Source of the DNA: Acidobacteriota bacterium
GTDB taxonomy: Bacteria; Acidobacteriota; Vicinamibacteria; Vicinamibacterales; UBA2999
Assembly: GCA_023265015.1 (NCBI GenBank)
Contig: JAHFUO010000003.1
Span: 2,866 to 66,865 of the forward strand
Length of the DNA: 64,000 nucleotides
Direction of reading: 5' to 3'
Shown: positions 8,184-33,311 of the stretch, one piece after another
Layout: every line of letters begins with the position of its first letter
How positions within the stretch are numbered: the stretch's first letter is position 1
Made by a program: the position numbers and the translations under genes
The notes under the pieces: model-generated
Seen by the model: only the letters and a program-made list of their open reading frames with translations
Told to the model about the DNA's origin: nothing
Databases searched by the model: none

Positions 8184-8205
8184 TACGATCTCGGCACCGT
8201 TACCC

Positions 8206-10761
<2,556 letters not shown>

Positions 10762-11832: not shown

Positions 11833-12810
11833 TTACCGGACATCCATTCCCACCGGCGTTCGGGCTTCCGTCGTCGCGCTGACGAAATACAGAGGCCGGC
11901 GTACGACCTCCGCATAAATCCGGTAGAGGTACTCGCCTGTCACCCCCATCATCAGGAACTGCAACCCGAAGAACAACGTCAGCGGGAGCATGACGCTGGT
12001 CCAGCCGGGAATCGGATGCCCAGCGAGGCGGTGATACAACACATACCCGGCGATCGGCAGCGTGAGCATCGACACGACCGCGCCGGCAATCGTCATCACG
12101 CGGATCGGCATCTGCGAAAAGCCGATGAATGTGTCGTACATCGTCTTGACCATCCGCCCGTAGGTCCAGCCGGATATGCCGAAGCGCCGCTGCTGCCGAT
12201 GATATTCGACGATCGCCTCGGAAAATCCCGCCCATGCCACCAGGGCGAACGTCACGCGGTTGTGCTCCTGGAACTGCGCGAAGCACTCGGCGACCTTCCG
12301 GTCGACGAGCAGGAAGCTGCCCGTCGTGAATCGCGATCCGGTCGGCATCGCGTACTTCCGGATGAGCGATTCGAAGATGCGGCTGGTCCACACCTTGAGA
12401 GACGATTCGTCACGCGAGACTCGCTTTCCCCAGACGATGTCCGCGCCGCGCTTCCACGTGTCGATGAACTGCGAGACGACCGCCGGTGGATCCTGCAGAT
12501 CACACGCGAGAGTGGCCACGGCATCGGCGTCGCCGATGTTCGCGAATCCGGCGCTCAGCGCGATGTGCGATCCGTAGTTGCGCGACAGGCGGATCCCGCG
12601 GACGCGCGGATCCCGTGCGGCAATCTCGCAGATCTTCTGCCAGCTGTCGTCGGCGCTGCCGTCCTCGATGAACAGGACGCGCACGCTGCAATCGGTCCGC
12701 GACAGCAGCGTCGTCCGCACGGCCTGCTCGTACGCCGCGAGGCCCGCCGTCTCGTTGTAGACGGGCGTGAGAATCAGGACGACCGGCGGGCGGCCTGGCT
12801 GAAGGCTCAC
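11833..12810 (-). CDS. GT2 polyprenyl-phosphate glycosyltransferase (ArnC/CsbB/GtrB-like)
   Basis: LILTPVYNETAGL, LFIEDGSADDS, LACDLQDPP, plus two C-terminal TM helices ending GLQFLMMGVTGEYLYRIYAEVVRRPLYFV. Confidence 0.8.
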   Translation of the reverse strand: MSLQPGRPPVVLILTPVYNETAGLAAYEQAVRTTLLSRTDCSVRVLFIEDGSADDSWQKICEIAARDPRVRGIRLSRNYGSHIALSAGFANIGDADAVATLACDLQDPPAVVSQFIDTWKRGADIVWGKRVSRDESSLKVWTSRIFESLIRKYAMPTGSRFTTGSFLLVDRKVAECFAQFQEHNRVTFALVAWAGFSEAIVEYHRQQRRFGISGWTYGRMVKTMYDTFIGFSQMPIRVMTIAGAVVSMLTLPIAGYVLYHRLAGHPIPGWTSVMLPLTLFFGLQFLMMGVTGEYLYRIYAEVVRRPLYFVSATTEARTPVGMDVR

Positions 12811-13571
12811 GGTTCATCCCACGTGGCGAATTCAGGCCCCAGGAGCTGCGCCAGCTGCCGCCCCGGCTCCCCGTAGCGCTCTCGCAGGCGATCGCGCACG
12901 GCGTCGGGCATCGAGTCGCCGCGGTTTTCCGACGGGTTCACGACGTCCAGTCCTTGTGCATCGTCTGGGCGCGGGGTGACGCCGATGAAGCGGTGAAGTC
13001 GCGACGCCAGCTCACCCGGCTTGTGGATGATAGCGTCGAATTTGAGGCACAACACGTGGTCGCGCGGAAAGAGCGCGAAATACGGACGCAGCATCGCCGC
13101 GTACAAACCGCGCGAAACGTAGGCGTGCGGCCGCGCGTATCGCAGCGTGGGCGGGAGCTGCCGCTCGCGCTCCTCTTCCATGGCGATGGCCGTGTCGAAG
13201 TCCTCGGTCTCCATTCCGTTCATCCGCGACCAAGCCCAGTTCGAGTACGCGCGCTCAGCCGGCTCGCGCAGGATGAACACGAGCTTCACATCGGGGAGAT
13301 CGTGGTGAATCCGCTGCGCGGCGGTCACGCTCTCGAGATAGTTCGTGGATTTCTCGCCAGAGGCGGGATACGACTCCGCGCCCGCGAACCACGTGTCGAC
13401 GTAATGCCGGATGCCGCGCGCGTACATCTCGTCGACGAGGAAGAACTTCGGCTCGGGCCGCGCCGGCTTCGCCATGTAGACATCCGGATGCCGATCGAGA
13501 AGCTGATACAGCCAGGTGGTTCCCGAGCGCGGCGCGCCGGCAATGATGAAGGTTGGGCCCTGTCGGCTCAT
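12807..13571 (-). CDS. PAPS-dependent sulfotransferase
   Basis: 5'-PSB loop IIAGAPRSGTTWLYQLL and 3'-PB-like LVFILREPAERAYSNW. 254 aa. Confidence 0.8.
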   Translation of the reverse strand: MSRQGPTFIIAGAPRSGTTWLYQLLDRHPDVYMAKPARPEPKFFLVDEMYARGIRHYVDTWFAGAESYPASGEKSTNYLESVTAAQRIHHDLPDVKLVFILREPAERAYSNWAWSRMNGMETEDFDTAIAMEEERERQLPPTLRYARPHAYVSRGLYAAMLRPYFALFPRDHVLCLKFDAIIHKPGELASRLHRFIGVTPRPDDAQGLDVVNPSENRGDSMPDAVRDRLRERYGEPGRQLAQLLGPEFATWDEP

Positions 13572-13714: not shown

Positions 13715-13744
13715 TTGACCGGATCGAGCCAAATCACTTATTAT
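13715..13744 (+). promoter_or_regulatory. Candidate sigma70-type promoter for the plus-strand mega-operon
   Basis: TTGACC (13715-13720), 18-nt spacer, TATTAT (13739-13744), in the only AT-rich patch of the 404-bp gap. It would give a leader of roughly 230 nt before ATG 13976. Confidence 0.3.
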
Positions 13745-13975
13745 TCAATGCTTAAAGCCGCGCTTTGGCACACCACACCAACCTGGGTCTCAGCAACAGC
13801 CGACCTCCTTTTCCGGGGAACGTACGTCAGATACGGGCTGTCGAGCACATCAAGACCTAGTGCTCGCCCGGGCAAGGTGTGAAAGGCAGGCGCGGTAAAT
13901 CCGCCAAGTGGAGCGGTATTGCGCCTTGTCTTCGCCTGTCGTGTGGGTGAAAGGGCGAAGCTCTATCCGATCTTC

Positions 13976-16900
13976 ATGAGGATTCTCTTTTCAGTCGGCA
14001 GCTTCGGGTTCCTCCGGAACTTCGAGCCGGCTCTCCGCCTGCTCGCGGAGCGCGGTCATGACCTGCACCTCATGGCCGACCGCAAAGACAGCGTAGGCGG
14101 AACGAAGACGCTCGACCTGCTGCTGCGCGATTACCCGGATCGCATCCGCCACAGCTACGCACCTGCGCGCAAGGATTCGATGTGGCAGCCGCTCGCCACG
14201 CAGCTGCGCCTCACGCTCGACTACTGGCGGTATCTCGATCCCCGGTACGACCATTCGCCGAGTCTCCGCGCGCGCGGCTCGTCGCAGGCGCCGGCGCTTG
14301 CGTCGCGCCTCACGCGCAGTTCGTTGATGCGCTCGCGTCCCGCGCTTCGCGCCATGCGCGCAGTCGTGAGCACGCTCGAGCACGCGGCACCGCACGGGCA
14401 TCGCATCGAGGCGTTTCTGCGCAAGGAGAAGCCCGATCTCCTGCTCGTGACGCCGCTTTTGTATTTCGGATCGCAGCAGGTCGATTACGTGCGCGCGGCG
14501 CGGGCGCTCGGCATCCCGACCGTGCTTGGCGTCGGCAGTTGGGATCACCTCACGACGAAGGGGCTGATTCACGAGCAGCCGGACCGCGTGATGGTGTGGA
14601 ACGAAGCGCAGCGCGCGGAGGCAGGCGAGCTGCACGGCATCCCAGCCGAGCGCGTAACGGTGACCGGCGCCCAGGCCTACGACCACTGGTTCGTGCAGAG
14701 ACCGGCGCTGTCGCGCAAGGCGTTCTGCGCGAAGGTGGGCGTCCCGCACGATCGACCCCTGCTGCTGTATCTCTGCTCGTCGCCGTTCATCACCCCGCAC
14801 GAAGTTGGCTTCGTCCGCCGATGGATTGAAACGATTCGCGCCTCGTCTGATGAGGTCCTGCGCCGCGCGGCGATCCTGATCCGTCCGCATCCGCAGAACG
14901 CGGATCAGTGGCACGACTTCGACCCGGGCGAGTACGACGCCGTCGGCATCTGGCCGCGCGCGGGCGCGAATCCGGTCGACACCGAGGCGCGCGCCGACTA
15001 CTTCGACTCGATGTTCTACAGCGTCGCGGTCGTCGGCGTGAACACGAGCGCGCTGATCGAAGCCGGCATCGTCGGGCGTCCCGTCTATACCGTCCTCGCC
15101 GAGGAATTCGCGGGACAGCAGGAAGGCACCCTGCACTTTCAGCATCTGAAGAACGTCAATGGCGGGCTGCTGACCGTTGCGGCGTCGCTCCCGGAGCACG
15201 TCGCCCAGCTGGCGGACGCCGTGCGGCGCCGGCCGGAGCGTGACGAGAAGAGCCGCGCGTTCGTCGAATCGTTCGTGCGTCCCTACGGATTCGACGTGCC
15301 GGCCGCGGGCCGGTTCGTCGAGGCGATTGAAGCGCAGGTTGCGCAGCCGCGCCCTGCTCCGGTTCCACGCCGGCTGAGCCAGCGCGCGCTGACGTTCCTG
15401 ATGCGCCCGTTGGCGCTCGCCGCGGCGGCACGCGCGCGTCGGAGGCGCAGCGGGAGGGCGGCTGTTTCCACCGGCGCGCCGGGCCGGCCGGCGCGCTTCA
15501 TGTTCGCGGTCTCCTCGCCCGAGTTCCTCCGCTATTTCGACTCGACGATGGAGATGCTCGTGGAACGCGGGCATCACGTGAGCGTGGCGGTCAACTGGCT
15601 GCGCGAACGCAAGAAGGCGCGTCTCGACGAGTTGATCGGCGATCCACGCATCGAGGTCGTTGGCGTCATCCCGAAGCGCGGCGACATGTGGACGCCGATG
15701 GCGCGGGCGGTCCGCGGGACGATGGACTTCGTGCGGTACCTGGATCCCCGGTTTGCCGATACGCCTGCGCTGCGCGCCCGGATGGTGCGCAAGTCATTGC
15801 CGTCGCTGCTCGAGCCACTCGATCGTATCCGTTCGCTCAGCAGCGCGTCGGTCGAGAGGCTGCAGCGGGTTCTTCAGCGCGTCGAGCGCGCGATTCCGGT
15901 TGGCGAGCGCCTGCTGCTGTTCCTCGACACGCATCGACCGGATGTTGTCGTCGTGTCCCCGCTCGTCGATGCATCCTCCGACCAGGTCGATCTCGTGCGC
16001 GCATCGCACGCGGCGGGCATCCGCTCGGTCGCGGCCATCGCCAGCTGGGACAACTTGACGAACAAGGGCCACATGCGCGTCGTGCCGGATCTCGTGACGG
16101 TCTGGAACGAGCGCCAGCGCGAGGAGGCCACCGCGCTGCACGGCGTGCCGGCGGCGAACGTGGCCGTCACCGGAGCGCAGCTCTTCGACCGCTGGTTCGA
16201 GCGGCAGCCCAGCCAGCCGCGCGACGCGTTCTGCGCGATGGTCGGCCTGCCAACCGACCGCCCGATCGTGCTCTATACCGGATCGTCGGTGTTCATCGCG
16301 CGGTCTGAATTCGAAGTGCCGTTTGTTCGCCGCTGGATGGGCACGCTGCGCCGCAGCGGGCATCCGCTGCTGCGCGACGCGGCCATCCTCGTCCGGCCGC
16401 ATCCGTTCAACTGCGACGCGTGGGAGCACGCGGACTTCAGCGAGTTCGGGCCCGTGGCTGTCTGCCCGCGGCAGCGCTACACGCCGGCGGCGGAAAGCGC
16501 GCGTGCCTCGCTCTTCGACTCGCTCTTCTACAGCGCGGCGGTCGTCGGCATCAACACGAGCGCGATGATCGAGGCGGCGATTCTCGGCAAACCGGTCCTG
16601 TCGCTGATGACGGGCGACTTCGCCGGCACGCAGGAGGGCACGCTGCACTTCAGATACCTGCTGCCCGAGAACGGCGGATTCCTTCGCGTGGCGTCGACAC
16701 TCGAGCAGCACGCCGGGCAGCTCGCCGAGGTGCTGCGCGATCCGGACGTGACGCGCGCGCAGACGATGAACTTCGTGCGCCACTTCCTGCGGCCGCACGG
16801 GCTCGATCGGCCCTGCACGCCGATCCTCGTGGAGGCATTCGAGCGCGTCGCCGCAGCGGGGCCGCGGAGCGCGGAGGCCGACACATTCGGGACGAAATCT

Positions 16901-17137
16901 CTTCGGGTCGCGGTTGCTCCGCTGGCCGCGACGATGCGGGCCGCCGATCGTCTCGGGGGCGTGAACGCGGCGAAGGTGGCGCACGACGCCCGGCGGCGCA
17001 CGCGCAAGATCTTGTACGAAAGCTATTCGACCGTGCGGCGGGGCTCACGGCTCGCGTATTCACGGATGGTGAAGAAGCCGTCGCGCCGTGCCATCAAGGC
17101 GGTGCGCCTGATGCTGCGCGGCGAAGAATCCAGGTGA
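13976..17137 (+). CDS. Two-module family A protein (tandem internal duplication of a GT-B-like RPHP module)
   Basis: Module 1: MRILFSVGSFGFLRNFEPALRLLAERGHDLHL, SWDHLTTKG, VTGAQAYDHWF, ILIRPHPQNADQW, VVGVNTSALIEAGIVGRPV, EGTLHFQHL. Module 2 from ~15490: RFMFAVSSPEFLRYFDSTMEMLVERGHHVSV, SWDNLTNKG, VTGAQLFDRWF, ILVRPHPFNCDAW, VVGINTSAMIEAAILGKPV, EGTLHFRYL. Start moved to ATG 13976 by alignment with paralog N-termini. Confidence 0.75.
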   Translation: MRILFSVGSFGFLRNFEPALRLLAERGHDLHLMADRKDSVGGTKTLDLLLRDYPDRIRHSYAPARKDSMWQPLATQLRLTLDYWRYLDPRYDHSPSLRARGSSQAPALASRLTRSSLMRSRPALRAMRAVVSTLEHAAPHGHRIEAFLRKEKPDLLLVTPLLYFGSQQVDYVRAARALGIPTVLGVGSWDHLTTKGLIHEQPDRVMVWNEAQRAEAGELHGIPAERVTVTGAQAYDHWFVQRPALSRKAFCAKVGVPHDRPLLLYLCSSPFITPHEVGFVRRWIETIRASSDEVLRRAAILIRPHPQNADQWHDFDPGEYDAVGIWPRAGANPVDTEARADYFDSMFYSVAVVGVNTSALIEAGIVGRPVYTVLAEEFAGQQEGTLHFQHLKNVNGGLLTVAASLPEHVAQLADAVRRRPERDEKSRAFVESFVRPYGFDVPAAGRFVEAIEAQVAQPRPAPVPRRLSQRALTFLMRPLALAAAARARRRRSGRAAVSTGAPGRPARFMFAVSSPEFLRYFDSTMEMLVERGHHVSVAVNWLRERKKARLDELIGDPRIEVVGVIPKRGDMWTPMARAVRGTMDFVRYLDPRFADTPALRARMVRKSLPSLLEPLDRIRSLSSASVERLQRVLQRVERAIPVGERLLLFLDTHRPDVVVVSPLVDASSDQVDLVRASHAAGIRSVAAIASWDNLTNKGHMRVVPDLVTVWNERQREEATALHGVPAANVAVTGAQLFDRWFERQPSQPRDAFCAMVGLPTDRPIVLYTGSSVFIARSEFEVPFVRRWMGTLRRSGHPLLRDAAILVRPHPFNCDAWEHADFSEFGPVAVCPRQRYTPAAESARASLFDSLFYSAAVVGINTSAMIEAAILGKPVLSLMTGDFAGTQEGTLHFRYLLPENGGFLRVASTLEQHAGQLAEVLRDPDVTRAQTMNFVRHFLRPHGLDRPCTPILVEAFERVAAAGPRSAEADTFGTKSLRVAVAPLAATMRAADRLGGVNAAKVAHDARRRTRKILYESYSTVRRGSRLAYSRMVKKPSRRAIKAVRLMLRGEESR

Positions 17138-18834
17138 AGATCCTTTTCCTCGGGCGGCACTACACCTACTTCCGAAACTTCGAGTCGGTGCTGCGCGGTC
17201 TCGCCGGGCGCGGGCACACGATTCACCTGGCTGTGGAGCGTGACGAGACGCTTGGCGGGCTCAGCATGGTGCAGACGCTTGCCGCTGAATTCCCCTCGAT
17301 GACCCACGGCGAAGCGCCAGGTCGCGCAGACGACGACTGGTCGTGGGTGGTCGATCGGCTGCGCCTCGGGCTGGACTACCTGCGGTATCAGCATCCGGTG
17401 TTCGACACGGCGCGGAAGCTGCGCGATCGGTCCCGCGATCGAACGCCGGGCGCGTTCGTCGCGCTCGGCCGCGTGATCCGCGCTGCCGGCGGCTGGTCGC
17501 GGGGCATCGTGTCGGCCGTTGTGCGGCGGCTGGAGCGCGCGGTGCCGGAGGACCCGGCGATCCGCGAATACCTCGAGGCCGAGCGCCCCGACATCGTGCT
17601 GCTCACGCCGCTCATCGACCTCGGGTCGTCGCAGATCGAGTACCTGCGTGCCGCGCGCGCGCTGCGCATCCCGGCCGGCTTGTGCGTGTGGAGCTGGGAC
17701 CACCTGTCGAGCAAGGCGCTGATCCGCGAGACGCCGGATCGCGTATTCGTGTGGAACCTGACGCAGAAGCGCGAAGCGATCGAGCTGCACGGCGTGCCGG
17801 CGGATCGCGTCGTGGTGACCGGCGCGCAGTGCTTCGATCAATGGTTCAACCGGGAGCCGTCGCGCGATCGCGAGACGTTCTGCCGCCAGGCCGGCCTCCC
17901 CTCGTCACCGCCGTTCGTGCTGTACGTCTGCTCGGCGCTGTTCGCGGGGAGCCCGGTCGAAGCCGGGTTCGTCGTGAAGTGGATCCGCGCGCTTCGCGGC
18001 GGCGCATCGGCACGGCTTCGGTCGGCGCCGATTCTCGTGCGTCCGCATCCGTCGCGGCTGGCGGAATGGGAAGGCGTCGATTTGCGCGAGCTCAACGCCG
18101 TGCTGTGGGGCGGCAACCCCGTTGATGCGCAGTCGCGCGCCGACTACTTCGACACGCTCTATCACAGCGCCGCGGTCGTCGGCATCAACACCAGCGCCTT
18201 CATCGAGGCCGGCATCGTCGGGCGGCCGGTTCACACGATCGTCCTGCCCGAGATGGCGGACAACCAGACCGGCACCGTGCATTTCAACTACTTGCTGAAT
18301 GCCGGCGGCGGGCTGCTCGAGGTGGCGCACAGCGTCGATGAGCACGTCCGGCAGCTCGACGCCTCGCTCGCGAAGGCCGACGCGGGTGAGGTCAAGCCGT
18401 TTGTGCGCGAATTCGTGCGGCCTCACGGCCTGGATGTCGCGGCGACACCGCTCTTTGTCGAGCTCGTCGAGTCGATGCGCGATCTCAGAACATCGGCGCC
18501 CGACCGAGATCCGCTCGCGGCTGTCTGGCGCTGGCTGGCGGCGCGCGCGGCGCGCACCCGAGACGACGAGCGGTACGAGCCGTGGACGCTGTCGGAGCGT
18601 GAGCTCGCGTCGCTCCAGAAGCTGCGCGGGGCGCGGCAGGTCAAGGCGAGCCGTCGTGCCGAGGCGCGGCGGGCGCGCGAGGCCGAACGCGAGGCGAGCA
18701 TCCGCGATCGCGAACAGCGGCACCTGGCGGACGAGCAGCAGCGCGCGGAGAAGGCGGTGGAGAAGGCGAGGCGGCTTGCGGAAAAGCGCGAGCGCGTCGA
18801 TGCTGAACGGGCAGCCAGGCAGCGCGTCGGATAG
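17134..18834 (+). CDS. Family A protein (GT-B-like, RPHP motif) with charged C-terminal helix
   Basis: GTG 17134 overlaps the upstream TGA (GTGA). VKILFLGRHYTYFRNFESVLRGLAGRGHTIHL, SWDHLSSKALI, VTGAQCFDQWF, ILVRPHPSRLAEW, VVGINTSAFIEAGIVGRPV, TGTVHFNYLL. Tail RRAEARRAREAEREASIRDREQRHLADEQQRAEKAVEKARRLAEKRE. Confidence 0.75.
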   Translation: MKILFLGRHYTYFRNFESVLRGLAGRGHTIHLAVERDETLGGLSMVQTLAAEFPSMTHGEAPGRADDDWSWVVDRLRLGLDYLRYQHPVFDTARKLRDRSRDRTPGAFVALGRVIRAAGGWSRGIVSAVVRRLERAVPEDPAIREYLEAERPDIVLLTPLIDLGSSQIEYLRAARALRIPAGLCVWSWDHLSSKALIRETPDRVFVWNLTQKREAIELHGVPADRVVVTGAQCFDQWFNREPSRDRETFCRQAGLPSSPPFVLYVCSALFAGSPVEAGFVVKWIRALRGGASARLRSAPILVRPHPSRLAEWEGVDLRELNAVLWGGNPVDAQSRADYFDTLYHSAAVVGINTSAFIEAGIVGRPVHTIVLPEMADNQTGTVHFNYLLNAGGGLLEVAHSVDEHVRQLDASLAKADAGEVKPFVREFVRPHGLDVAATPLFVELVESMRDLRTSAPDRDPLAAVWRWLAARAARTRDDERYEPWTLSERELASLQKLRGARQVKASRRAEARRAREAEREASIRDREQRHLADEQQRAEKAVEKARRLAEKRERVDAERAARQRVG

Positions 18835-18932: not shown

Positions 18933-20087
18933 ATGAGAAAAGTCTGCGTCGTCGTCGGGTCGCGCGCCAATTACAGCAGCATCAAGTCCGTGATGTGCGC
19001 CGTCCGCGCGAATCCGGACCTGAAGCTGCAGCTCATCGTCGGCGCCTCGGCGCTGCTCGATCGGTTCGGATCGGTCGTGGACGTGATCGAGGCCGACGGG
19101 TTCGAGGCGGACGCCAAGGTCACGATGATCGTCGAAGGCGAAACGCCGGGGACGATGGCAAAGTCGACGGGCCTTGGCCTGCTCGAGCTTCCCACGATTT
19201 ACGGGATGCTCAAGCCGGACGTCGTCGTCAGCGTCGGCGATCGGTTCGAGACGATGGCGACCGCGGTGGCGGCGGCGTACATGAACATCCCGCTCGCGCA
19301 CACGATGGGCGGCGAGATCAGCGGCACGATCGACGAGAGCATTCGTCACGCGGTGACGAAGCTCTCGCATCTGCACTTCCCGGCGAACAGGCAGGCGGCG
19401 GAGCGGATCATCCGGATGGGCGAGGACCCAACGATGGTCCACGTGGTCGGATGTCCGCGCATCGACCTGGTGGCCGAGATCGCGAAAGGCGACGGCCACC
19501 TCGAGTCGCCCGACTGGCTCGAGCGCGAAGGCGCGGGCGCGCACATCACGCTCGACACGCCATTCCTTCTCGTGAGCCAGCATCCTGTGACGACCGAGTA
19601 CGGCCAGGGCGAGCCGCAGATCGTCGAGACGCTGGCGGCGCTCCACGATCTGCGGATGCCGACGATCATGCTCTGGCCGAACGCCGACGCCGGCTCCGAG
19701 GACGTCTCGCGCGGCATGCGGAAGTTCCGCGAGAAGTACCGGCCGGAGTACATCCGCTTCTACAAGAACTTTCCGATCGAGACCTACGCACGGCTGATGC
19801 TGAGTTGCGGGTGCGCTCTCGGCAACTCGAGCGCGCCGCTCCGCGAGGGCGCGTACATGGGGGTGCCGTCGGTGAACATCGGCACGCGCCAGCAGGGGCG
19901 TGACCGGGCGGACAACGTCGTGGACGTCCCGCACGAGCGGCGCGCGATCGTCGCGGCGGTGAAAAGCCAGCTCGCGCACGGCCGGTATCCGTCGAACCAC
20001 CTGTACGGCGACGGCGATGCCGGCGGCCGCATCGCGAAGATTCTCGTAGAGTCGCCGCTTCGCGTCCAGAAGCGGTTGGCCTACTAA
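18933..20087 (+). CDS. neuC: UDP-N-acetylglucosamine 2-epimerase, hydrolysing (NeuC/LegG-type), copy 1
   Basis: VCVVVGSRANYSSIKSV, VVSVGDRFETMATAVAAAYMNIPLAHTMGGEISGTIDESIRHAVTKLSHLHF. The GGE..G..DE..RH..TK motif marks the hydrolysing type rather than WecB. Confidence 0.85.
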   Translation: MRKVCVVVGSRANYSSIKSVMCAVRANPDLKLQLIVGASALLDRFGSVVDVIEADGFEADAKVTMIVEGETPGTMAKSTGLGLLELPTIYGMLKPDVVVSVGDRFETMATAVAAAYMNIPLAHTMGGEISGTIDESIRHAVTKLSHLHFPANRQAAERIIRMGEDPTMVHVVGCPRIDLVAEIAKGDGHLESPDWLEREGAGAHITLDTPFLLVSQHPVTTEYGQGEPQIVETLAALHDLRMPTIMLWPNADAGSEDVSRGMRKFREKYRPEYIRFYKNFPIETYARLMLSCGCALGNSSAPLREGAYMGVPSVNIGTRQQGRDRADNVVDVPHERRAIVAAVKSQLAHGRYPSNHLYGDGDAGGRIAKILVESPLRVQKRLAY

Positions 20088-20155: not shown

Positions 20156-20166
20156 GATACAACACA

Positions 20167-20871
20167 TTGCAGATATTGGGTGTGATTCCGGCGCGCGGAG
20201 GCTCGAAGGGGATTCCCAACAAGAACCTCGCGACGGTGTGCGGACGTCCGCTGCTCGCGTACACGGCAGATGCCGTGAAGCAGAGCACGCGACTCACGCG
20301 CGCCATCGTCAGCACCGATGACGAGCGGATTGCGGACTGCGCCAGGTCGCTCGGCCTCGAGGTGCCGTTCATGCGTCCCGCCTCGCTCGCAGCGGACGAT
20401 ACGCCCATGCTTCCGGTGCTGCAGCACGCCCTCGGCACGTTGAAATCAGATGGGTTCGAGGCCGACATCGTCGTGCTGCTCCAGCCGACATCGCCGCTGC
20501 GACGAGGCGAGCACATCGACGCTGCCGTCGACTGGCTCCAGCGTGCCGGCGGCGAATCAGTGGTGTCAGTTGTCGAGGTGCCGCATCAGTTCAGTCCGGT
20601 ATCGGTCATGCGCGTTGACGATGGCTATTTGTTTCCGTTTCTCGACGGACCCCCGATCGTGCGCCGACAGGACAAACCGCGCCTCTATGCGCGTAACGGG
20701 CCTGCCGTTCTTGCGGTGCGGGCATCCGTGCTTGTCGGCGGGTCGCTCTACGGCAACAAGTCGTGGCCGCTCGTCATGAAGCAGGAAGAGTCGCTCGACG
20801 TCGATACGCCATGGGATCTGTCGCTGGTCGAATTCGCGCTGACCGCGCGCATCAATGCAAATTCCTTATAG
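20167..20871 (+). CDS. neuA: Acylneuraminate/nonulosonate cytidylyltransferase (NeuA/LegF/PseF-type), copy 1
   Basis: GVIPARGGSKGIPNKNLATVCGRPLLAYT...VSTDDERIADCARSLGLEVPFMRPASLAADDTPMLPVLQHAL...LLQPTSPLRR. TTG start, uncertain by a few codons. Confidence 0.85.
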   Translation: MQILGVIPARGGSKGIPNKNLATVCGRPLLAYTADAVKQSTRLTRAIVSTDDERIADCARSLGLEVPFMRPASLAADDTPMLPVLQHALGTLKSDGFEADIVVLLQPTSPLRRGEHIDAAVDWLQRAGGESVVSVVEVPHQFSPVSVMRVDDGYLFPFLDGPPIVRRQDKPRLYARNGPAVLAVRASVLVGGSLYGNKSWPLVMKQEESLDVDTPWDLSLVEFALTARINANSL

Positions 20872-21859
20872 GCGAGTGTCCGAGTATCAGCCGGTCGATG
20901 TCAGCCGGCTGCGCCCCGGGCGCTCGTACAAGAGCCTGATCGAGAAGCGCACGCACCCGATCGACGATCTCGTCGCGCGGTTCGGCCGCATTCCCGAGCA
21001 GCTGCTCACGCGCCGCGCATGTCCCACGTGCGGCAGCACGGACGAGTCGCTCGAGCTCGAGAAGGATCACATGCGGATCGTCCGCTGCAAGGCGTGCGAT
21101 CTCGTGTACGTGAATCCCACGTTCGACGAGGCGCACTACAAGGAGGTCTACGCGTCACAGGCGTACCAGGACATCGTTCGCGATCTCGGCATCACCAGCC
21201 ACGAGTATCGCGCGGGACGATTCGGAACCGAGCGCGTCGGCCTGATGGCAGAGCACCTCCGCATGCCCAACGGCAGCACGCCGCGCTATCTCGACGTCGG
21301 ATGCAGCACCGGGTTCGTCGTGGAAGCGGCGCGCGACAAGGGGTGGGATGCGATCGGCATCGATCTCAATCCATCTGCGATTGAGTACGGCCGCACCCGG
21401 GGTCTCGATCTTCGCACCGTCGCACTCGAGGATGCGGGTTTCGCACCGGCCAGCTTCGACGCCGTGTCGCTCTTCGATGTGCTCGAGCATCTGCTCGATC
21501 CGCGGCGAACGCTCCGCGCGTGCGCGGATCTGCTGGCGCCGGGCGGCATCCTGTTTCTCTATGTGCCGAACTTCGACTCCGCATCGCGACTGCTGATGGG
21601 CGCCAACGCGCACTTCATCTGGCCGACGCATCACCTGAACTACTACACGCCCACGACGATCCGCGACCTGATGCTGCGCCACGGCCTCACGCCGGAGCTG
21701 ATCGTCACCGAGGGGCTCGATATCGAGGACTACCTCTGGTACCGCCGCGAGGTCCTCAATCGCAGCGACGATGGGATGGCGGAGATCGCGGACGTGCTGC
21801 AGTTCCTCGCGAACGCCGGCTGCTACGGGAAAAACCTGAGGGTGATCGCGCGCAAATGA
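20855..21859 (+). CDS. SAM-dependent methyltransferase with N-terminal zinc ribbon
   Basis: CPTCGS...CKACDLVYVNP; YLDVGCSTGFVVEAA...FDAVSLFDVLEHLLDP...GGILFLYVPN...HHLNYYT. Confidence 0.8.
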   Translation: MQIPYRRVSEYQPVDVSRLRPGRSYKSLIEKRTHPIDDLVARFGRIPEQLLTRRACPTCGSTDESLELEKDHMRIVRCKACDLVYVNPTFDEAHYKEVYASQAYQDIVRDLGITSHEYRAGRFGTERVGLMAEHLRMPNGSTPRYLDVGCSTGFVVEAARDKGWDAIGIDLNPSAIEYGRTRGLDLRTVALEDAGFAPASFDAVSLFDVLEHLLDPRRTLRACADLLAPGGILFLYVPNFDSASRLLMGANAHFIWPTHHLNYYTPTTIRDLMLRHGLTPELIVTEGLDIEDYLWYRREVLNRSDDGMAEIADVLQFLANAGCYGKNLRVIARK

Positions 21860-23604
21860 AGTTTCTCTTTACCGCGCTGCATTTTGCGAACTACCGGAAC
21901 TTCGAGTCGGTGATCCGCGATCTTGCGTCGCGCGGCCACGAAGTGCACCTCCTGGCCGACGAGGAGGAGAGCTTTGGCGGACAGGCGCTCGTCGAGCGGC
22001 TCGCGGCCGAGTACCCGGCCGTCACGTGGGGCTGGACGCCGTCGCCGGCGGAGGAGCCGTGGTTTCCCGTCGCGCAGAAGCTCCGGTTCGCGCTCGACTA
22101 CGTCCGCTACCTCGATCCGCAGTACGCCGAAGCAAGAAAACTGCGGCTGCGCAACATCGAGCGCACGCCGCGCATCGTGCGCTGGATGACGTCAGGCATC
22201 GGTGGCGCCGTTGTCGGACACCGTGCCATCGCGGGCGTCCTCAAGGCCGCGGAGCGGATGCTGCCGCGCAGTCGCGCGATCACGCGGATGCTCGAAGAGC
22301 AACGTCCCGACGCCGTGCTGCTGACGTCGCTCACGTTCTCGCGCTCGCTCGCGATGGACCAGTTGAAAGCGGCACGCGCGCTCGGCATTCCGACCGCGGC
22401 ATGCATCATGAGCTGGGACCATCTCTCGAGCAAGGCGCTTGTGCACATTCCGCCCGACAAGACGATCGTCTGGAACGACGTGCAGAAGCGCGAGGCGTCG
22501 GAGATGCACGGCATCCGCGACGACAGCGTCGTCGTCACCGGCGCGCAGTGTTACGACCAGTGGTTCGAGAAGAAGCCTGCGCGCTCGCGCGAGGAGTTCT
22601 GCCGGGCGGTGGGCCTCGATCCGTCGAAGCCGTTTGTGCTCTACGTCTGCTCGGCCATGAGTCCGGTGCCGGATCCGGTCGAACCCGTGTTCGTGAAGGA
22701 GTGGATCGAGGCGGTGCGCGCGAGCGGCGATCCGGCGCTGCGGACCGCGGGCGTGCTCGTCCGCCCGCACCCCGAGCGGGTCCGCGAGTGGAGCGGCGTC
22801 AGCCTCGACGGTCTCGAGCACGTCGTCGTGCACGGGCGCACGCCGATCGACAGCGACGCCAAGGCCGATTATTTCGACTCGCTGTACTACAGCAGCGCGG
22901 TCGTGGGTCTGTGCACCAGCGTGTTTGTCGAGGCGGCGATCGTCGGTCGTCCCGTGCTGACAATGCTGTTGCCCGCGTATCGCATGCACCAGGACGGCAT
23001 GGCGCACTTCCGCTACCTGCTGAACGTCGAAGGCGGATTGCTTCACACGGCGCCCGACGTCCCCGCGCACCTCGCGCAGCTGGCTGACGCGATGAAGGAC
23101 GCCGGCTCGCGCGATGCGCGCAATCGCCGCTTCCTCACCGCGTTCGTCCGCCCGCAGGGGCTCGACATGCCATCTACGCCGCGCTTCGTTGAAGCGGCGG
23201 AGCAGCTGGCACGAAGCGGCCGCCGCGATCCGGATCCACTGTTGACGCGCCCATCGCCGATCCGCGCGATCGTCGGGCGTCTTGCCGTCGCCGGAACAAG
23301 CGGCATCGGCGCATGGCTGCTGATGGACAGCTTCGACGAGCAGCGTGCCATGAGCGAGCGCGAGCGGGAGCAGCAGAAGCGCGCGGTCCTTGACGAGCGC
23401 GCGGCGCGCTGGGAAGCCGAGCGGCGCGAACGCGACGAGAAGCTGCGGCGCAAGCAGGCGCAGCGCGACGCGAAGACGCGGATCCAGACGAAGAGAGAGC
23501 ACAAGCAGCAGTGGCGGCGCTGGCGCTACGCGCTCGGGACGAGCGGAGCCGTGGCGCGGTTGAAGGGCGGCCTCAAGCTGCTGATCGGGGCGCGCCACCA
23601 GTGA
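21856..23604 (+). CDS. Family A protein (GT-B-like, RPHP motif) with charged C-terminal helix
   Basis: ATGA overlap with the upstream gene. MKFLFTALHFANYRNFESVIRDLASRGHEVHL, SWDHLSSKALV, VTGAQCYDQWF, VLVRPHPERVREW, VVGLCTSVFVEAAIVGRPV, DGMAHFRYLL. Tail SEREREQQKRAVLDERAARWEAERRERDEKLRRKQAQRDAK. Confidence 0.75.
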   Translation: MKFLFTALHFANYRNFESVIRDLASRGHEVHLLADEEESFGGQALVERLAAEYPAVTWGWTPSPAEEPWFPVAQKLRFALDYVRYLDPQYAEARKLRLRNIERTPRIVRWMTSGIGGAVVGHRAIAGVLKAAERMLPRSRAITRMLEEQRPDAVLLTSLTFSRSLAMDQLKAARALGIPTAACIMSWDHLSSKALVHIPPDKTIVWNDVQKREASEMHGIRDDSVVVTGAQCYDQWFEKKPARSREEFCRAVGLDPSKPFVLYVCSAMSPVPDPVEPVFVKEWIEAVRASGDPALRTAGVLVRPHPERVREWSGVSLDGLEHVVVHGRTPIDSDAKADYFDSLYYSSAVVGLCTSVFVEAAIVGRPVLTMLLPAYRMHQDGMAHFRYLLNVEGGLLHTAPDVPAHLAQLADAMKDAGSRDARNRRFLTAFVRPQGLDMPSTPRFVEAAEQLARSGRRDPDPLLTRPSPIRAIVGRLAVAGTSGIGAWLLMDSFDEQRAMSEREREQQKRAVLDERAARWEAERRERDEKLRRKQAQRDAKTRIQTKREHKQQWRRWRYALGTSGAVARLKGGLKLLIGARHQ

Positions 23605-24626
23605 CGCCGCGCACCGTGCTCGGCATGACGCTCTACAACAACGCAGGGCATCTGCGCGAAGCAACCGACTCGATCCTCGCCCAGACGAACGCCGACTTCG
23701 CGCTGTTGATGCTCGACGATGGATCGAGCGACGAGGCGGAGGCGATCGCGCGCGAATACGAGCGGCGCGATGCACGCGTGCGCTACCGGCGGCATGGGCA
23801 GCGGCAGGGGATGGTGCCCACCTGGAAGGAAGTGGTCGAGATCGCCCGCCGGGAATATCCGCACGCCGAGTATTTCTCGTGGGTCAGCGATCACGATCGC
23901 TGGAATCCGCAGTGGCTCGCGCGCATGGTTGCGGAGCTCGACGCGCATCCTGCGGTGGTGCTCGCGTACCCGTTCACGCTGCGCATCGATGAACACGGAG
24001 AGCTGACGGATAAGGAGCCGCGAGTGTTCGACACGGCAGGCGTTGCGGATCAACGCGAACGCTGGCGCCGCTTCTGCTGGAACGGCTTCGGTTCGGGCGA
24101 CATGGTGTACGGCCTGATGCGCCTTCGAGCGCTGGAAGCGGCCGGCATCTTTCGTCCCGTGCTCAACCCCGATCGCCTGCTCATCGCGGAGCTCACGCTT
24201 CAGGGCGAGGTTCGGCAGGTCGCGGAGCCGCTGTGGTCGCGCAGGCAATCGAGCGTCGGCAGCGTGACGCGTCAGGGCGCCTCGCTCTTCGCCGGCGAGA
24301 CGCCGCCGCGCTTCGCGTGGCCTCCCTCACTCCAGCACGCCGTGATCCTGCGGCGCGGGGGCGTTGGGGCGTCGATGATTGCGACCTACGTCGTTGCCTC
24401 GGCCTGGCGCGCCACGCGCAAGACCGACACGTCGAAGAGCATCGGCCGCGGCGCCGACCACGCGCACTTCGTGAAGAAGGTCGTCAAGAAGGCCTTTCGC
24501 CACGCCGTCTACTGCACGCTGGTCGGTGCGCGCATGCTGGCCGGACGCAGCCGCCGCATCGGCCGCAAGGTCGTCTACGAAATCCTGATGTTCACGCACC
24601 GCACGGGGCTGCGCGGCAACAAGTGA
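23601..24626 (+). CDS. GT2-family glycosyltransferase
   Basis: LGMTLYNNAGHLREATDSILAQTNADFALLMLDDGSSDEAEAIAREY...WVSDHDRW. Start placed at GTG 23601 (GTGA overlap). Confidence 0.7.
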   Translation: MTPRTVLGMTLYNNAGHLREATDSILAQTNADFALLMLDDGSSDEAEAIAREYERRDARVRYRRHGQRQGMVPTWKEVVEIARREYPHAEYFSWVSDHDRWNPQWLARMVAELDAHPAVVLAYPFTLRIDEHGELTDKEPRVFDTAGVADQRERWRRFCWNGFGSGDMVYGLMRLRALEAAGIFRPVLNPDRLLIAELTLQGEVRQVAEPLWSRRQSSVGSVTRQGASLFAGETPPRFAWPPSLQHAVILRRGGVGASMIATYVVASAWRATRKTDTSKSIGRGADHAHFVKKVVKKAFRHAVYCTLVGARMLAGRSRRIGRKVVYEILMFTHRTGLRGNK

Positions 24627-26185
24627 AGGTCCTGTTCGCCGCGCTGCATTACGGCTACTTCCGGAACCTCGAGTCGGTGGTCGACGAGCTCGCGCGGCGC
24701 GGGCACGACATTCATCTGACCGCCGAGCGCCCCGACTCGGCGTTGGGCGGGCGCTCGATCGTCGAGCGGCTGGCGGCCAGCCACGGACACGTCACGTTCG
24801 GCATGATGCCGCGGCGCGAGCGCGCGTATTTCTTTCTTGCCTCGAAGCTTCGACTCTCGCTCGACTACCTCCGCTACCTGCAGCCCGCCTACGCGAAAAC
24901 ACCGGCGCTTCGCCGCCGCGCGCGCGTGCGGACGCCCCGCGGCCTGCTCCGGGTGCTGCGCCTGCCGCTGCTGGCGACGCCCGGCGGCCGGCGGCTCGTG
25001 TCGCGCGCGCTCGACAGCGTCGATCACGCGATTCCGCCAAGCCCCGCCATCGATCGGTTCGTCGACGAGCAGCGTCCCGACCTCGTGATCATCACCCCGC
25101 TCGTCGGCGTCGTCGCCTCGTCGCAGCTCGACCTGCTGCGCAGCGTGCAGGCGCGACGCGTGCCTGCGGCCGTCTGCGTGTGGAGCTGGGATCACCTCTC
25201 GAGCAAGGCGATCATCCGCGACCTTCCCGATCGCCTGCTCGTCTGGAACGACGTGCAGAAGCGAGAAGCGATCGAGATGCACGGCGTTCCCCCCGATCGC
25301 GTCGTCGTCACCGGCGCCCAGTGTTTCGATCGCTGGTTCGATCGGCAGCCGGCGCGCGGTCGCGCGGAGTTCGCGCGCCGCGTCGGGTTTCCCGACGATC
25401 GGCCCTACGTGCTGTGGGTGTGTTCAGCGCTCTTTCCCGGGAGCCCGTCGGAAGCGGAGTTCGTGATGAAGTGGGCCGCGCACCTGCGCGCCTCGTCCGA
25501 TCCGCGCATCCACGGGGCGGCGATTCTGATTCGCCCGCATCCCTCGCGTGCGCGCGAGTGGGAGTCCGTTGACTGGCGCAGCGTCAGCGGCGTGGCGTTC
25601 CGGGGAGGCAACCCGATAGACGAGGAGTCGCGCGGGGACTACTACGATTCGCTGCACCACAGCGCCGCCGTTGTGGGCCTCAACACCAGCGCGTTCATCG
25701 AGGCCGGCATCGCGCAGCGTCCGGTGATGGCGATTCTCCCCGCGGAGTTCAAGGCAAACCAGGAAGGGACGCTGCACTTCCGCTACCTGACTGAAGGCGG
25801 ATTGCTGACCACGTCGCGATCGCTCGACGAGCACGAGCGTCAGCTTGCCGCGATTCTCGCGGGCCCGCCGACCTCCGTCATGCAGCGGCAGCGGGGATTC
25901 ATCGAGTCGTTCGTGCGGCCGCGAGGCCTGACCGTGTCGGCGACGACGGTCATGGCCGACGAGCTGGAGCAGCTGGCAGCGGCCGGGCCGGCGCGCGCGC
26001 CGAGCGCCGTGCCGCTGACCGGCAGGCTCGGGCTCGCGATGCTTCGCGCGTTCGCGCGCGTCCCGGTGGGACGCCGGCTGCTGCTCGACGAGCGCGAGGT
26101 CAAGGCCAGGAAGCGGCGCGCCGAAGAGGAAGGACGAAGCGCCAAGAAAGAAGAGCCGCGCGGAGCCGCCGACATCGCCCGATGA
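24623..26185 (+). CDS. Family A protein (GT-B-like, RPHP motif)
   Basis: GTG 24623 (GTGA overlap). VKVLFAALHYGYFRNLESVVDELARRGHDIHL, SWDHLSSKAII, VTGAQCFDRWF, ILIRPHPSRAREW, VVGLNTSAFIEAGIAQRPV, EGTLHFRYL. Basic tail KARKRRAEEEGRSAKKEE. Confidence 0.75.
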   Translation: MKVLFAALHYGYFRNLESVVDELARRGHDIHLTAERPDSALGGRSIVERLAASHGHVTFGMMPRRERAYFFLASKLRLSLDYLRYLQPAYAKTPALRRRARVRTPRGLLRVLRLPLLATPGGRRLVSRALDSVDHAIPPSPAIDRFVDEQRPDLVIITPLVGVVASSQLDLLRSVQARRVPAAVCVWSWDHLSSKAIIRDLPDRLLVWNDVQKREAIEMHGVPPDRVVVTGAQCFDRWFDRQPARGRAEFARRVGFPDDRPYVLWVCSALFPGSPSEAEFVMKWAAHLRASSDPRIHGAAILIRPHPSRAREWESVDWRSVSGVAFRGGNPIDEESRGDYYDSLHHSAAVVGLNTSAFIEAGIAQRPVMAILPAEFKANQEGTLHFRYLTEGGLLTTSRSLDEHERQLAAILAGPPTSVMQRQRGFIESFVRPRGLTVSATTVMADELEQLAAAGPARAPSAVPLTGRLGLAMLRAFARVPVGRRLLLDEREVKARKRRAEEEGRSAKKEEPRGAADIAR

Positions 26186-29981: not shown

Positions 29982-29998
29982 GCCTTGGGCCCTGAGCC
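29922..29998. repeat. GGCTCAAG/GAGCC-family palindrome, copy 1
   Basis: ggctcaaggctcacggctcaagcctcaggcgg cttt agccttaggccccttgagccctaagccttgggccctgagcc. About 8-nt periodicity. Overlaps the 3' end of the upstream CDS and ends 4 nt before ATG 30003. Confidence 0.8.
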
Positions 29999-30002
29999 TT
30001 CC

Positions 30003-31061
30003 ATGACGTCCAACGCACATCCCGCGCTGACTGGTCTTGGATCCGGACGGTGCCTGATCATCGGCGAGGTTGCGCTCACGCACGATGGAAGCGTGGGTCT
30101 CGCGCACGCGTTCGTCGACGCGATCGCGAGCGCTGGCGCGGACGCGGTGAAGTTTCAGACGCACATTGCGGCGGCGGAGAGCACGCCGTCAGAGCCGTTC
30201 CGCGTGAAGTTCAGCAAGCAGGAGGAGACACGCTACGACTACTGGAAGCGGATGGAGTTCACCGAGGAGCAGTGGCGCGGCCTCGCAGATCACGCGCGCG
30301 AGCGCGGCATCCTCTTCCTGTCGTCGCCGTTCTCGATCGAGGCGATCGAGCTGCTCGACCGCCTCGGGATGCCGCTCTGGAAGATTGCGTCCGGCGAGAC
30401 CTCGAACGCGATGCTGCTCGACCGCATCCTCGACACGCGCGCGCCGGTGCTGCTCTCCACGGGCATGAGCCCGATCGAGGAGGTTGACGCCGCCGTCGCC
30501 CGTGTGCGCGCGCGCACGGTGGACGTCGGCGTGTTTCAGTGCACGACCGCGTATCCGTGCCCGCCGGACAAAATCGGCCTCAACCTGATCCCGTTCTACC
30601 GCGAGCGGTACGGGTGCTGGGTGGGCCTCTCTGATCATTCGGCGACGATCTATCCGGGGCTTGCCGGCGCGGCGCTCGGCATGGACATGCTCGAGGTGCA
30701 CGTCGCGCTGTCGCGCGAGCAGTTCGGGCCGGACGTGATCGCGTCGGTGACGACCGCGGAGCTTCGCCAGCTGGTCGACGGCGTCCGCTTCATCGAGCGG
30801 ATGCGCGCCAACCCGATCGACAAGAACGCCTCGGCGCAGGAAACCGCGCCGCTACGAAACCTGTTTACCCGCAGCCTGGTGGCGAGCGCCGACCTGCCCG
30901 CCGGCACCGTCATCACGCGCGACCATGTCGCGATCAAGAAGCCGGGGACCGGCCTGCCGCCCGGTCGGCTCGAGGACATCATCGGCCGCCGCCTGGCGCG
31001 GCCCGTTGCCGCGGATCAACTTCTGGCCGTGGAGGACATCGAGGGACTCGCCCGCTCGTGA
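30003..31061 (+). CDS. neuB: Nonulosonic acid synthase, bacterial NeuB/LegI/PseI-type, with C-terminal SAF domain
   Basis: CLIIGEVALTHDGSVGLAHAFVDAIASAGADAVKFQTH, LFLSSPFSIEAIELLDRLGMPLWKIASGE, GLSDHS, SLVASADLPAGTVITRDHVAIKKPGTGL. Confidence 0.85.
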   Translation: MTSNAHPALTGLGSGRCLIIGEVALTHDGSVGLAHAFVDAIASAGADAVKFQTHIAAAESTPSEPFRVKFSKQEETRYDYWKRMEFTEEQWRGLADHARERGILFLSSPFSIEAIELLDRLGMPLWKIASGETSNAMLLDRILDTRAPVLLSTGMSPIEEVDAAVARVRARTVDVGVFQCTTAYPCPPDKIGLNLIPFYRERYGCWVGLSDHSATIYPGLAGAALGMDMLEVHVALSREQFGPDVIASVTTAELRQLVDGVRFIERMRANPIDKNASAQETAPLRNLFTRSLVASADLPAGTVITRDHVAIKKPGTGLPPGRLEDIIGRRLARPVAADQLLAVEDIEGLARS

Positions 31062-32215: not shown

Positions 32216-32282
32216 GGCCGGCTAAAGCCGGCCCCTACGAGCCGGCCCCTACGAGCCGGCCCCTACGAGCCGGCCCCTACGT
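32216..32282. repeat. Hairpin-CCTACG family: hairpin plus 4 tandem copies of a 14-bp unit
   Basis: ggccggc-taaa-gccggcc hairpin, then gccggcccctacga at 32227, 32241, 32255 and 32269 (last copy ends cgt). Confidence 0.9.
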
Positions 32283-32311
32283 ACGAATGGTGAATACGCG
32301 CGAATGTCCCG

Positions 32312-33235: not shown

Positions 33236-33310
33236 GTCTCAAGGCTCAAGCCCAAAGCCCCTTAGGCCCCGAGCCCCGAGCCCTGAGCCCTAAGCCCTGA
33301 GCCCTAAGCC
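33222..33310. repeat. GGCTCAAG/GAGCC-family palindrome, copy 2
   Basis: ggctcaaggcttaggtctcaaggctcaagccc aaa gccccttaggccccgagccccgagccctgagccctaagccctgagccctaagcc. Contains the upstream stop codon and ends 1 nt before ATG 33312. Confidence 0.8.
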
Positions 33311-33311
33311 A

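Follow-up and report, generated by a model that had tools for sequence, protein, structure and literature searches.

How should a bacterial gene be understood that holds two complete glycosyltransferase modules in one reading frame, and what might its product transfer? The question is raised by positions 13976-17137 of a 64-kb (64,000-nucleotide) stretch of DNA from an Acidobacteriota bacterium of the Vicinamibacterales (UBA2999; contig JAHFUO010000003.1, assembly GCA_023265015.1), called the window in the following. The gene encodes a protein of 1053 amino acids (aa) with two modules of a GT-B type glycosyltransferase family that is represented by six modules in the window and is referred to here as family A. 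Its product is a true fusion of two paralogous GT-B modules that diverged long ago, and the fusion has been conserved. As a feature it is of an ordinary kind, a multi-module glycosyltransferase that arose by gene fusion, in a large uncharacterised family with a clear fusion history.

The longest open frame over the interval runs from a TTG at 13919 to the stop codon at 17135-17137. The ATG at 13976, which gives the 1053-aa product, is the likely start, because the resulting N-terminus, MRILF, is common to all paralogues. The gene is divided as follows.

13976..17137 (+): fused two-module family A gene, 1053 aa plus stop; first gene of the plus-strand glycan operon
13976..15355 (+): module 1 (M1), GT-B, M1-type orthogroup, aa 1-460; motifs SWDHLTTKG 14537-14563, RPHP 14882-14893, NTSA 15041-15052
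15356..15493 (+): linker, aa 461-506
15494..16855 (+): module 2 (M2), GT-B, M2-type orthogroup, aa 507-960; motifs SWDNLTNKG 16043-16069, RPHP 16394-16405, NTSA 16553-16564
16856..17134 (+): C-terminal tail, aa 961-1053, isoelectric point (pI) 11.8, long basic amphipathic helices

An earlier note on this DNA had described a product with two full family A modules, joined by an Ala/Arg-rich linker and both retaining the RPHP and NTSA motifs, and this description holds in all its parts. In tblastn searches of the window with each half, M1 and M2 match each other with 44-45% identity over 468-500 aa (E-value 1e-117). The quoted motifs are found at the expected places, SWDHLTTKG at aa 188-196 and SWDNLTNKG at aa 690-698, RPHP at aa 303-306 and 807-810, and NTSA at aa 356-359 and 860-863, and loss from one half is not seen. 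The linker string RPLALAAAARARRRRSGRAAVSTGAPGRP occupies aa 477-505 (nucleotides 15404-15490), and the string RFMFAVSSPEFLRYFDS follows at aa 507-523. The fused halves are 35-47% identical to the family A modules of four further genes in the window (starts at 17134, 21856, 24623 and 26182), each of which has one such module.

The two-module architecture is kept at orthologous loci. Among 5.8 billion proteins searched, more than 120 clusters of orthologues carry both modules (1025-1130 aa, 60-99% identity). They stem from independent ENA, JGI, NCBI and Logan assemblies, where named mostly from Vicinamibacterales metagenome-assembled genomes (MAGs), and all are annotated as "hypothetical". In an alignment of 56 orthologues, RPHP and NTS are invariant in both halves, SWD has no exceptions in M2 and is conserved to at least 90% in M1, and each half contains dozens of invariant residues. 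In an alignment of 282 family modules, 45 positions reach a conservation of at least 95%, and M1 and M2 each retain every one of them. Eleven residues are fixed differently in M1-type and M2-type modules, and three of these differences (H191/N693, T194/N696 and H199/R701) adjoin the SWD motif. Judging from this conservation, both modules are predicted to be catalytically competent, and the type-specific residues beside SWD would fit differing acceptor or linkage specificities.

By its predicted structure, the fused protein belongs to the GT-B fold superfamily. The AlphaFold2 model, run on the alignment of the 56 orthologues, has a mean predicted local distance difference test score (pLDDT) of 87.4 and a predicted template modelling score (pTM) of 0.55. 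It contains two Rossmann-pair GT-B modules, at aa 1 to ~460 and 507 to ~960, with alternating beta-alpha units in each half-module and a helical insert of ~80 residues in the N-domain of each module (aa ~71-151 in M1). The pLDDT is below 50 at aa 496-502 in the linker, and long helices are predicted for aa 971-1050 at the C-terminus. A Foldseek search of the PDB gave 279 matches at E<=1e-3. The 50 that were listed are all GT-B enzymes, with GT1 and GT4 enzymes and UDP-N-acetylglucosamine (UDP-GlcNAc) 2-epimerases among them and with template modelling scores (TM-scores) of up to 0.71, normalised by target. Cps3D (8qoy) ranks first by E-value (1.8e-11 over 1030 columns), at a TM-score of 0.23. 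With two complete modules in one conserved open reading frame (ORF), the protein has the architecture of a bifunctional glycosyltransferase. Sequence searches of PDB chains with the full protein and with a six-module profile returned chance matches only.

The history of the fusion can be read from the relatives of the two modules. In a neighbour-joining tree of the 282 modules, M1 and M2 lie in different clades, and their common ancestor spans 260 of the 282. M1 is no nearer to M2 than to other paralogues (distances 0.88-0.92), so the halves are ancient paralogues, and a recent internal duplication is rejected. The earlier note had likewise read the divergence of the modules as speaking against a recent duplication, which is borne out by the separate clades, the 11 fixed differences and the occurrence of the modules as separate adjacent genes in sister lineages. 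M1 and M2 orthologues occur as such separate neighbours at 10 loci. In nine of these ten pairs, the stop codon of the first gene and the start codon of the second overlap, either by 4 nucleotides (GTGA or ATGA) or by 1, and the second gene is in the +2 frame in all ten. The M1-type and M2-type subtrees are congruent.

Bootstrapping of concatenated M1 and M2 sequences (500 replicates) supports the fused clade that holds the window gene (F1) with 100%, a second fused clade (L017 and P0122) with 100%, and the grouping of this second clade with the unfused pairs L014 and L040 with 95%; monophyly of all fused genes receives 0%. The existence of two fused clades, one of which groups with unfused relatives, indicates that the same gene pair was fused at least twice. 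A single fusion followed by several splits would be a less parsimonious alternative. The second fusion is seen at L017 5203-8478 and in P0122, and its nearest relatives (L014 9980-13170 and L040 4745-7974) are unfused with a GTGA overlap. Among the fused orthologues, the column of the ancestral M2 start codon is occupied by CTG, CTC, ATG, TTG, CGA, CTA or GCG, with GCG (Ala504) in the window gene. This variety implies that M2 is no longer initiated separately, and a separate internal translation start for M2 is rejected on this ground. The ancestral state consisted of two adjacent, translationally coupled genes with a stop/start overlap of 4 nucleotides. A frame-restoring change abolished the stop codon of the first gene, whose C-terminal basic amphipathic tail turned into the inter-module linker, and the start codon of the second gene was lost by decay. 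Further fusions join an M2-type module to the next paralogue type (P0124) or three modules to each other (P0121), and independent module pairs are found in Planctomycetota (L036) and in another Acidobacteriota MAG (L068). The repeated fusion of neighbours argues that the modules act together.

The linker fits this history. It has a pI of 12, with 11 Arg and no acidic residue, and aligns with the amphipathic-then-basic C-terminal tail that is found in every single-module paralogue. The linker is the former C-terminal tail of the M1 gene, a putative membrane anchor. No transmembrane segment was found in the fused protein. Its module cores have a pI of ~9 with many invariant arginines, and behind each module come a short helix, hydrophobic or amphipathic, and a strongly basic tail. 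By analogy with the C-terminal helix of KpsC (PMC10148158), the C-terminal tail is probably a peripheral membrane or polyanion anchor.

Family A as a whole is large. An exhaustive profile search of 1.84 billion representatives identified 6881 clusters (at 50% identity) at E<=1e-3, 2076 of them at E<=1e-30. Most of the proteins consist of a single module of 500-600 aa or of a module with an extra ~400-aa domain. Two complete modules are present in 18 of the best 150, and three in one (P0121, 1546 aa). A genome scan found at least 581 family A coding stretches, mainly in Vicinamibacterales MAGs, and also in Acidimicrobiia, Planctomycetota, Chloroflexota, Thermoleophilia, Nitrospinota and others. 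The genes lie nearly always in arrays, with 2-7 paralogues per ~21 kb (76 loci). Two loci look broken, either as pseudogenes or through indel errors: at L001 13191-15054, a family A module is split into genes of 199 and 392 aa, and in a long-read MAG the orthologue of M1 and M2 (L006 9923-13058) is spread over two frames. The gene for the three-module protein (L081 2430-7070) adjoins genes for an ABC-transporter ATPase, a protein of the second glycosyltransferase family of these loci (family B, see below), methyltransferases and a Capsule_synth (KpsC/KpsS-like) protein, which suggests an ABC-transporter-dependent polymer in that organism. A presumed permease at the same locus turned out on inspection to be a family B protein.

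Two other accounts of the gene have to be weighed against a working two-module enzyme. The single ORF could be an assembly or sequencing error that joined two genes. Near relatives do carry two overlapping genes that are offset by one frame, and the long-read MAG just mentioned shows the M1/M2 pair in two frames. Yet the same unbroken ORF recurs in more than 120 independent orthologue clusters, which for practical purposes rules out a local frameshift or assembly artefact. Moreover, the G+C content at third codon positions (GC3) stays at 0.76-0.90 in one frame through the M1-M2 junction, the M2 start codon has been lost, and the fused clade is monophyletic with full bootstrap support, so that an error is so improbable that it can be set aside. 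Alternatively, only one module might be catalytic and the other a degenerate scaffold or acceptor-binding domain. Pseudo-glycosyltransferase domains are known in other multi-domain enzymes, and the equivalent of position 191, a His in M1 and in the four other family A genes of the window, is Asn in M2 (N693). However, Asn is the commonest residue at this position in the rest of the family (53%), M2-type modules occur as stand-alone genes, and both halves keep the full set of 45 family-wide conserved positions as well as their dozens of residues that are invariant among the orthologues. We therefore consider it very unlikely that one half has been reduced to a scaffold.

What the two modules transfer has to be approached through remote homology and gene linkage. 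Literature searches for Acidobacteria combined with nonulosonic acid and glycosyltransferase found no paper, and a search for Vicinamibacter glycosyltransferases found nothing relevant. Among Pfam models, only weak matches to the N-domain of Glyco_transf_4 and MGDG_synth were obtained. Pfam PF04464 (Glyphos_transf) gave no match at E<=1 among five family A proteins, PF05159 (Capsule_synth) gave none at E<=1, no Pfam sialyltransferase model was matched, and no EX7E-type or other signature of a nucleoside diphosphate (NDP)-sugar family reached significance in family A. The NCBIfam model NF046086 (BFO_1060 family) matches both modules of the fused protein, in two stretches, with 64 bits (E 1.2e-17) against a cutoff of 200 bits, and covers profile positions 43-170 of 365 only; single-module family A paralogues score 23-26 bits. 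The BFO_1060 family comprises transferases for pseudaminic and legionaminic acid (Pse/Leg) of Tannerella forsythia that were assigned by genetic evidence and have a TagB-like domain and an HP motif (PMC5420450).

A second line of homology leads through a plasmid. A search of a plasmid collection yielded a single distant family A homologue, RS03400 of Rhizobium sp. WL3, which immediately follows neuC and a gene for an acylneuraminate cytidylyltransferase within a locus of O-antigen type. When the subfamily of this protein (alignment A6) was compared with family A, hhalign reported 99.9% probability and an E-value of 1e-33 over 304 columns, including SWD...K, HG..P..V, RxHP and the motifs that follow. 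In this subfamily, 18 of the 33 members match Pfam Glyphos_transf (PF04464, TagF-like) at E<=0.01, with a best E-value of 9e-12. The A6 genes lie inside clusters for NeuB, NeuC and the cytidine monophosphate (CMP)-sugar synthetase in all four loci examined, and in three of them directly adjoin NeuC and/or the CMP-synthetase. In two MAG loci, one of them from Rickettsiales, the A6 gene stands between NeuC and CTP_transf_3 with NeuB nearby, and one locus also has sulfotransferases; in Polaromonas, it is found ~2.6 kb downstream of NeuB, NeuC and CTP_transf_3 in the same cluster. The Rhizobium plasmid also carries, upstream of NeuB (L080 478-6327), four consecutive hypothetical genes of 449-513 aa, each with an HP motif and a weak match to Capsule_synth, BFO_1060, TIGR04396 or family A, which look like further candidate CMP-sugar transferases in a cultured strain.

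The window itself has the same kind of linkage. The fused gene heads an operon with nonulosonate genes, in the following order.

9458..9997 (-): adenylylsulfate (APS) kinase
12807..13571 (-): sulfotransferase, divergent from the fused gene
13715..13744 (+): promoter-like site TTGACC-18-TATTAT, 10 of 12 matches, judged by the consensus alone; 0.1 such sites expected, 1 found
13976..17137 (+): M1-M2 fusion, as above
17134..18834 (+): single-module family A gene, 566 aa, with a GTG start that runs into the TGA stop of the fused gene (GTGA)
18933..20087 (+): NeuC-type hydrolysing UDP-GlcNAc 2-epimerase (TIGR03568, 371 bits, above cutoff)
20167..20871 (+): CMP-nonulosonate synthetase (CTP_transf_3)
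20855..21859 (+): S-adenosylmethionine-dependent methyltransferase
21856..23604 (+): single-module family A gene, 582 aa
23511..24626 (+): GT2 glycosyltransferase
24623..26185 (+): single-module family A gene, 520 aa
26182..28857 (+): family A module fused to a family B module, 891 aa
28854..29981 (+): family B gene, 375 aa, GT-B, GT9-like by fold
29985..34001 (+): NeuB-like synthase, NeuC, methyltransferase and CMP-nonulosonate synthetase
34100..36314 (+): two family B genes, 34100-35119 and 35085-36314

The gene order M1, M2, 17134-type paralogue is conserved at related loci. Further downstream follows a second nonulosonate pathway, with a LegB-like dehydratase, two PseC/LegC-like aminotransferases, an acetyltransferase, NeuB and a third CMP-synthetase. 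GT-C-like and other proteins with multiple transmembrane segments are encoded alongside it, as is a WecA/MraY-type initiating transferase. Altogether, the window contains two NeuB-like, two NeuC and three CMP-synthetase genes, all three of the latter below equivalog cutoffs. Across 46 related loci with a length of at least 15 kb, 25 have a nonulosonate gene within 10 kb of family A.

CMP is released in TagF-type phosphotransfer as well as in nonulosonate transfer. This common product, the TagF-like link through the A6 subfamily and the TagB-like domain of the Tannerella enzymes lead us to infer a cytidine-nucleotide donor for family A. The modules are placed in an uncharacterised branch of the TagF-like/BFO_1060-like GT-B group; this relationship and the tie to nonulosonic-acid genes had escaped the earlier note. 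Homology and linkage together make CMP-nonulosonic acid the most likely candidate, so that a link of family A to nonulosonic-acid transfer is plausible. The fused protein would then be a bifunctional peripheral-membrane transferase that carries out two consecutive or alternating transfers, probably from CMP-nonulosonic acids to a surface glycan, and we regard this as somewhat better than an even proposition. In the proposed mechanism, donor, acceptor, linkage, membrane association and residue roles are all inferred. The protein would sit at the cytoplasmic face of the membrane via its basic helices and act twice in succession on an acidic glycan that is lipid-linked or still growing, possibly through alternating polymerising transfers in the manner of KpsC. 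The donors would be CMP-nonulosonic acids supplied by the operon's own NeuC, NeuB and CMP-synthetase genes. Through its His, the invariant RPHP may help CMP to leave, and the invariant Asp in SWD(H/N)L could serve as base or nucleophile. With regard to the capsule-polymerase reading, which the earlier note suggested, the enzyme could also perform two sequential single additions rather than an alternating polymerisation.

[quoted passage not shown] In both proteins, one chain contains two diverged paralogous GT-B-type modules with helical inserts and an HP motif. The basic, non-polar linker is a further likeness, as is the C-terminal amphipathic helix, a membrane anchor in KpsC, where the surroundings of the active sites are electropositive to suit a polyanionic acceptor. 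RPHP in both modules corresponds to the HP motif that is used to recognise KpsC and KpsS, but the motif is short and common to several families. In contrast to these likenesses, there is no detectable sequence relationship, as PF05159 gives no match and KpsC is absent from the 50 fold matches that were listed, genes for capsule export were not found in the window, and the donor proposed here is a nine-carbon nonulosonic acid and not Kdo. The Tannerella transferases Tanf_01245 and TFUB4_00887 (NF046086; PMC5420450) are closer in sequence. They are GT-B/TagB-like with an HP motif, are genetically implicated in CMP-nonulosonic acid transfer, and account for the significant partial profile match to both modules; they differ in being single-module proteins of ~445 aa, and the match takes in only some third of the profile positions.

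The capsule polymerase Cps3D has TagF-like and GT4-like GT-B domains in one chain, which act alternately, one of them releasing CMP (PMC11666461). The fused protein resembles it in having two GT-B catalytic domains in one chain, but the TM-score of only 0.23 implies a different domain arrangement. Cps3D combines two unrelated GT-B types with tetratricopeptide repeats (TPR), whereas the fused protein consists of paralogous modules without TPR, and family A falls short of the Glyphos_transf model. The bacterial sialyl- and polysialyltransferases (GT38, GT52 and GT80) and the bifunctional NmW/Y polymerases have a GT-B fold, a CMP-nonulosonate donor and an HP motif after a strand of the C-domain. 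The fused protein shares the fold and the HP motif with them, without a Pfam or PDB sequence match. Of the motif set of bacterial sialyltransferases, D/E-D/E-G and HP (Freiberger 2007, as quoted in PMC5420450), HP is present and D/E-D/E-G was not recognised, the nearest invariant acidic motif being SWD(H/N)L; in this respect the fused protein differs from the Tannerella enzymes as well.

Several observations weigh against CMP-nonulosonate transfer by the fused protein. Family A is known from genes and models alone, and no family A protein reaches a Pfam or NCBIfam model above its curated cutoff. Neither the PDB sequence searches nor the 50 listed fold matches connect family A with KpsC, WbbB or any sialyltransferase of solved structure. 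All trees were built by neighbour joining, and at a pTM of 0.55 the relative orientation of M1 and M2 in the model is uncertain. Of the 46 loci, 21 lack a nonulosonate gene within 10 kb, and one of these, L001, carries a fused-gene orthologue. Family B could be the nonulosonate transferase instead. The TagF-like link, finally, equally allows cytidine diphosphate (CDP)-activated alditol-phosphate donors.

The last two points correspond to different views of the enzyme. The modules could be TagF-like phosphotransferases that move alditol- or sugar-phosphate from CDP donors into a teichoic-acid-like polymer, as more than half of the A6 members match Glyphos_transf and the best Foldseek E-value falls on Cps3D with its TagF-like CgoT domain. 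A small gene resembling a cytidylyl- or adenylyltransferase at 37620-38072 could be taken in the same sense, but its score for TagD is lower than that for RfaE domain II, and neither model's cutoff is reached. Phosphotransfer appears rather improbable to us, because family A itself has no Glyphos_transf match, the tightest linkage, both in the window and of the A6 genes, is to NeuC and CMP-nonulosonate synthetases, and a TagB-like domain is also present in the Tannerella nonulosonate transferases. The modules could also be ordinary GT-B (Leloir) enzymes that use uridine, guanosine or adenosine diphosphate (UDP, GDP or ADP) sugars, while family B or another enzyme adds the nonulosonic acids. 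This would agree with the Foldseek neighbours, GT1, GT4 and 2-epimerase folds that bind UDP or thymidine diphosphate (TDP), with the weak matches to the Glyco_transf_4 N-domain and with the loci that lack nonulosonate genes, and family B is as tightly tied to these loci as family A. However, the absence of a significant EX7E-type or other NDP-sugar signature, the invariant RPHP, the homology to the BFO_1060 and TagF-like families, which release CMP, and the insertion of A6 genes between NeuC and CMP-synthetase genes all point elsewhere, so that an ordinary NDP-sugar transferase seems unlikely. CMP-nonulosonate transfer remains the reading that we prefer.

Family B deserves attention in its own right. 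This uncharacterised GT-B family is present in six copies in the window (8107-9498, 27700-28854 as the C-terminal half of the 26182 gene, 28854-29981, 34100-35119, 35085-36314 and ~45353-46582), with 36-48% mutual identity and motifs that include SRGG..SWY, LHPSxMY, YVAVKFY and FVGT.G. Searches of Pfam and NCBIfam with the family B proteins gave no match. The predicted structure (pLDDT 84, pTM 0.83) has a GT-B fold and is nearest to GT9 heptosyltransferases. Family B genes accompany family A in 42 of the 46 loci, once as a fusion to a family A module.

The surroundings of the operon offer further hints. The promoter-like site, sigma-70-like in sequence, lies in a divergent intergenic region of 404 bp and lower GC content (13572-13975), with a leader of ~230 nucleotides to the fused gene, and is likely to mark the start of the long plus-strand operon. 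Rfam gave no match in the whole window, and thus no riboswitch was found in the leader. Upstream, on the opposite strand, are genes for the sulfotransferase, a GT2 enzyme, a deacetylase-like protein, a methyltransferase and APS kinase. The presence of sulfotransferase and APS kinase beside the glycan operon, together with two sulfotransferases that adjoin the A6 gene of the Rickettsiales MAG (L083 10054-12086), hints at sulfated nonulosonate glycans. The nonulosonate genes (18933-20871, 29985-34001 and 43553-57010) have an aldehyde dehydrogenase, a transketolase-like protein and a haloacid dehalogenase (HAD) hydrolase as unusual companions, which may mean that the nonulosonic acids are modified or novel. 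A tblastn search with the L001 and L081 ATPases detected no ABC ATPase in the window, although ABC-transporter genes do flank family A genes at those two loci. Several proteins with multiple transmembrane segments and weak or no family assignment (3163-6012 and 695-2284 on the minus strand, 40238-41845, 41842-43548 and 46567-47982) are candidate flippases, polymerases or GT-C transferases for the glycan; they include a YfhO-like protein, the products of two adjacent genes with seven segments and similar layout (one with a weak PMT_2 match) and a protein with ten segments. An SmpB gene (7704-8183) is located at the edge of the glycan locus, and the Rfam search of the window yielded no transfer-messenger RNA gene above threshold.

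That one gene pair was fused repeatedly gives a clean Rosetta-stone signal for functional coupling of its products. The modules belong to a family that has no curated model and comes almost wholly from uncultured Acidobacteriota and other environmental phyla. Few bacterial transferases for nonulosonic acids (legionaminic, pseudaminic and related) are known (PMC5420450). If the donor has been correctly deduced, family A would be a new enzyme family for sialic-acid-like glycans and would explain how abundant soil bacteria build acidic surface polymers, and the fused and unfused forms of the gene pair would be natural experiments that reveal which modules cooperate. More speculatively, and on balance doubtful, families A and B may form the core of an unrecognised, widespread assembly system for surface polymers that are rich in nonulosonic acids and possibly methylated and sulfated, with family A as a new CAZy family and the M1-M2 protein as a KpsC-like polymerase that alternates two linkages or two nonulosonic acids and builds an oligo- or polynonulosonate. 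Such a system, if it exists, would be at work in Vicinamibacterales and in other soil and aquatic phyla.

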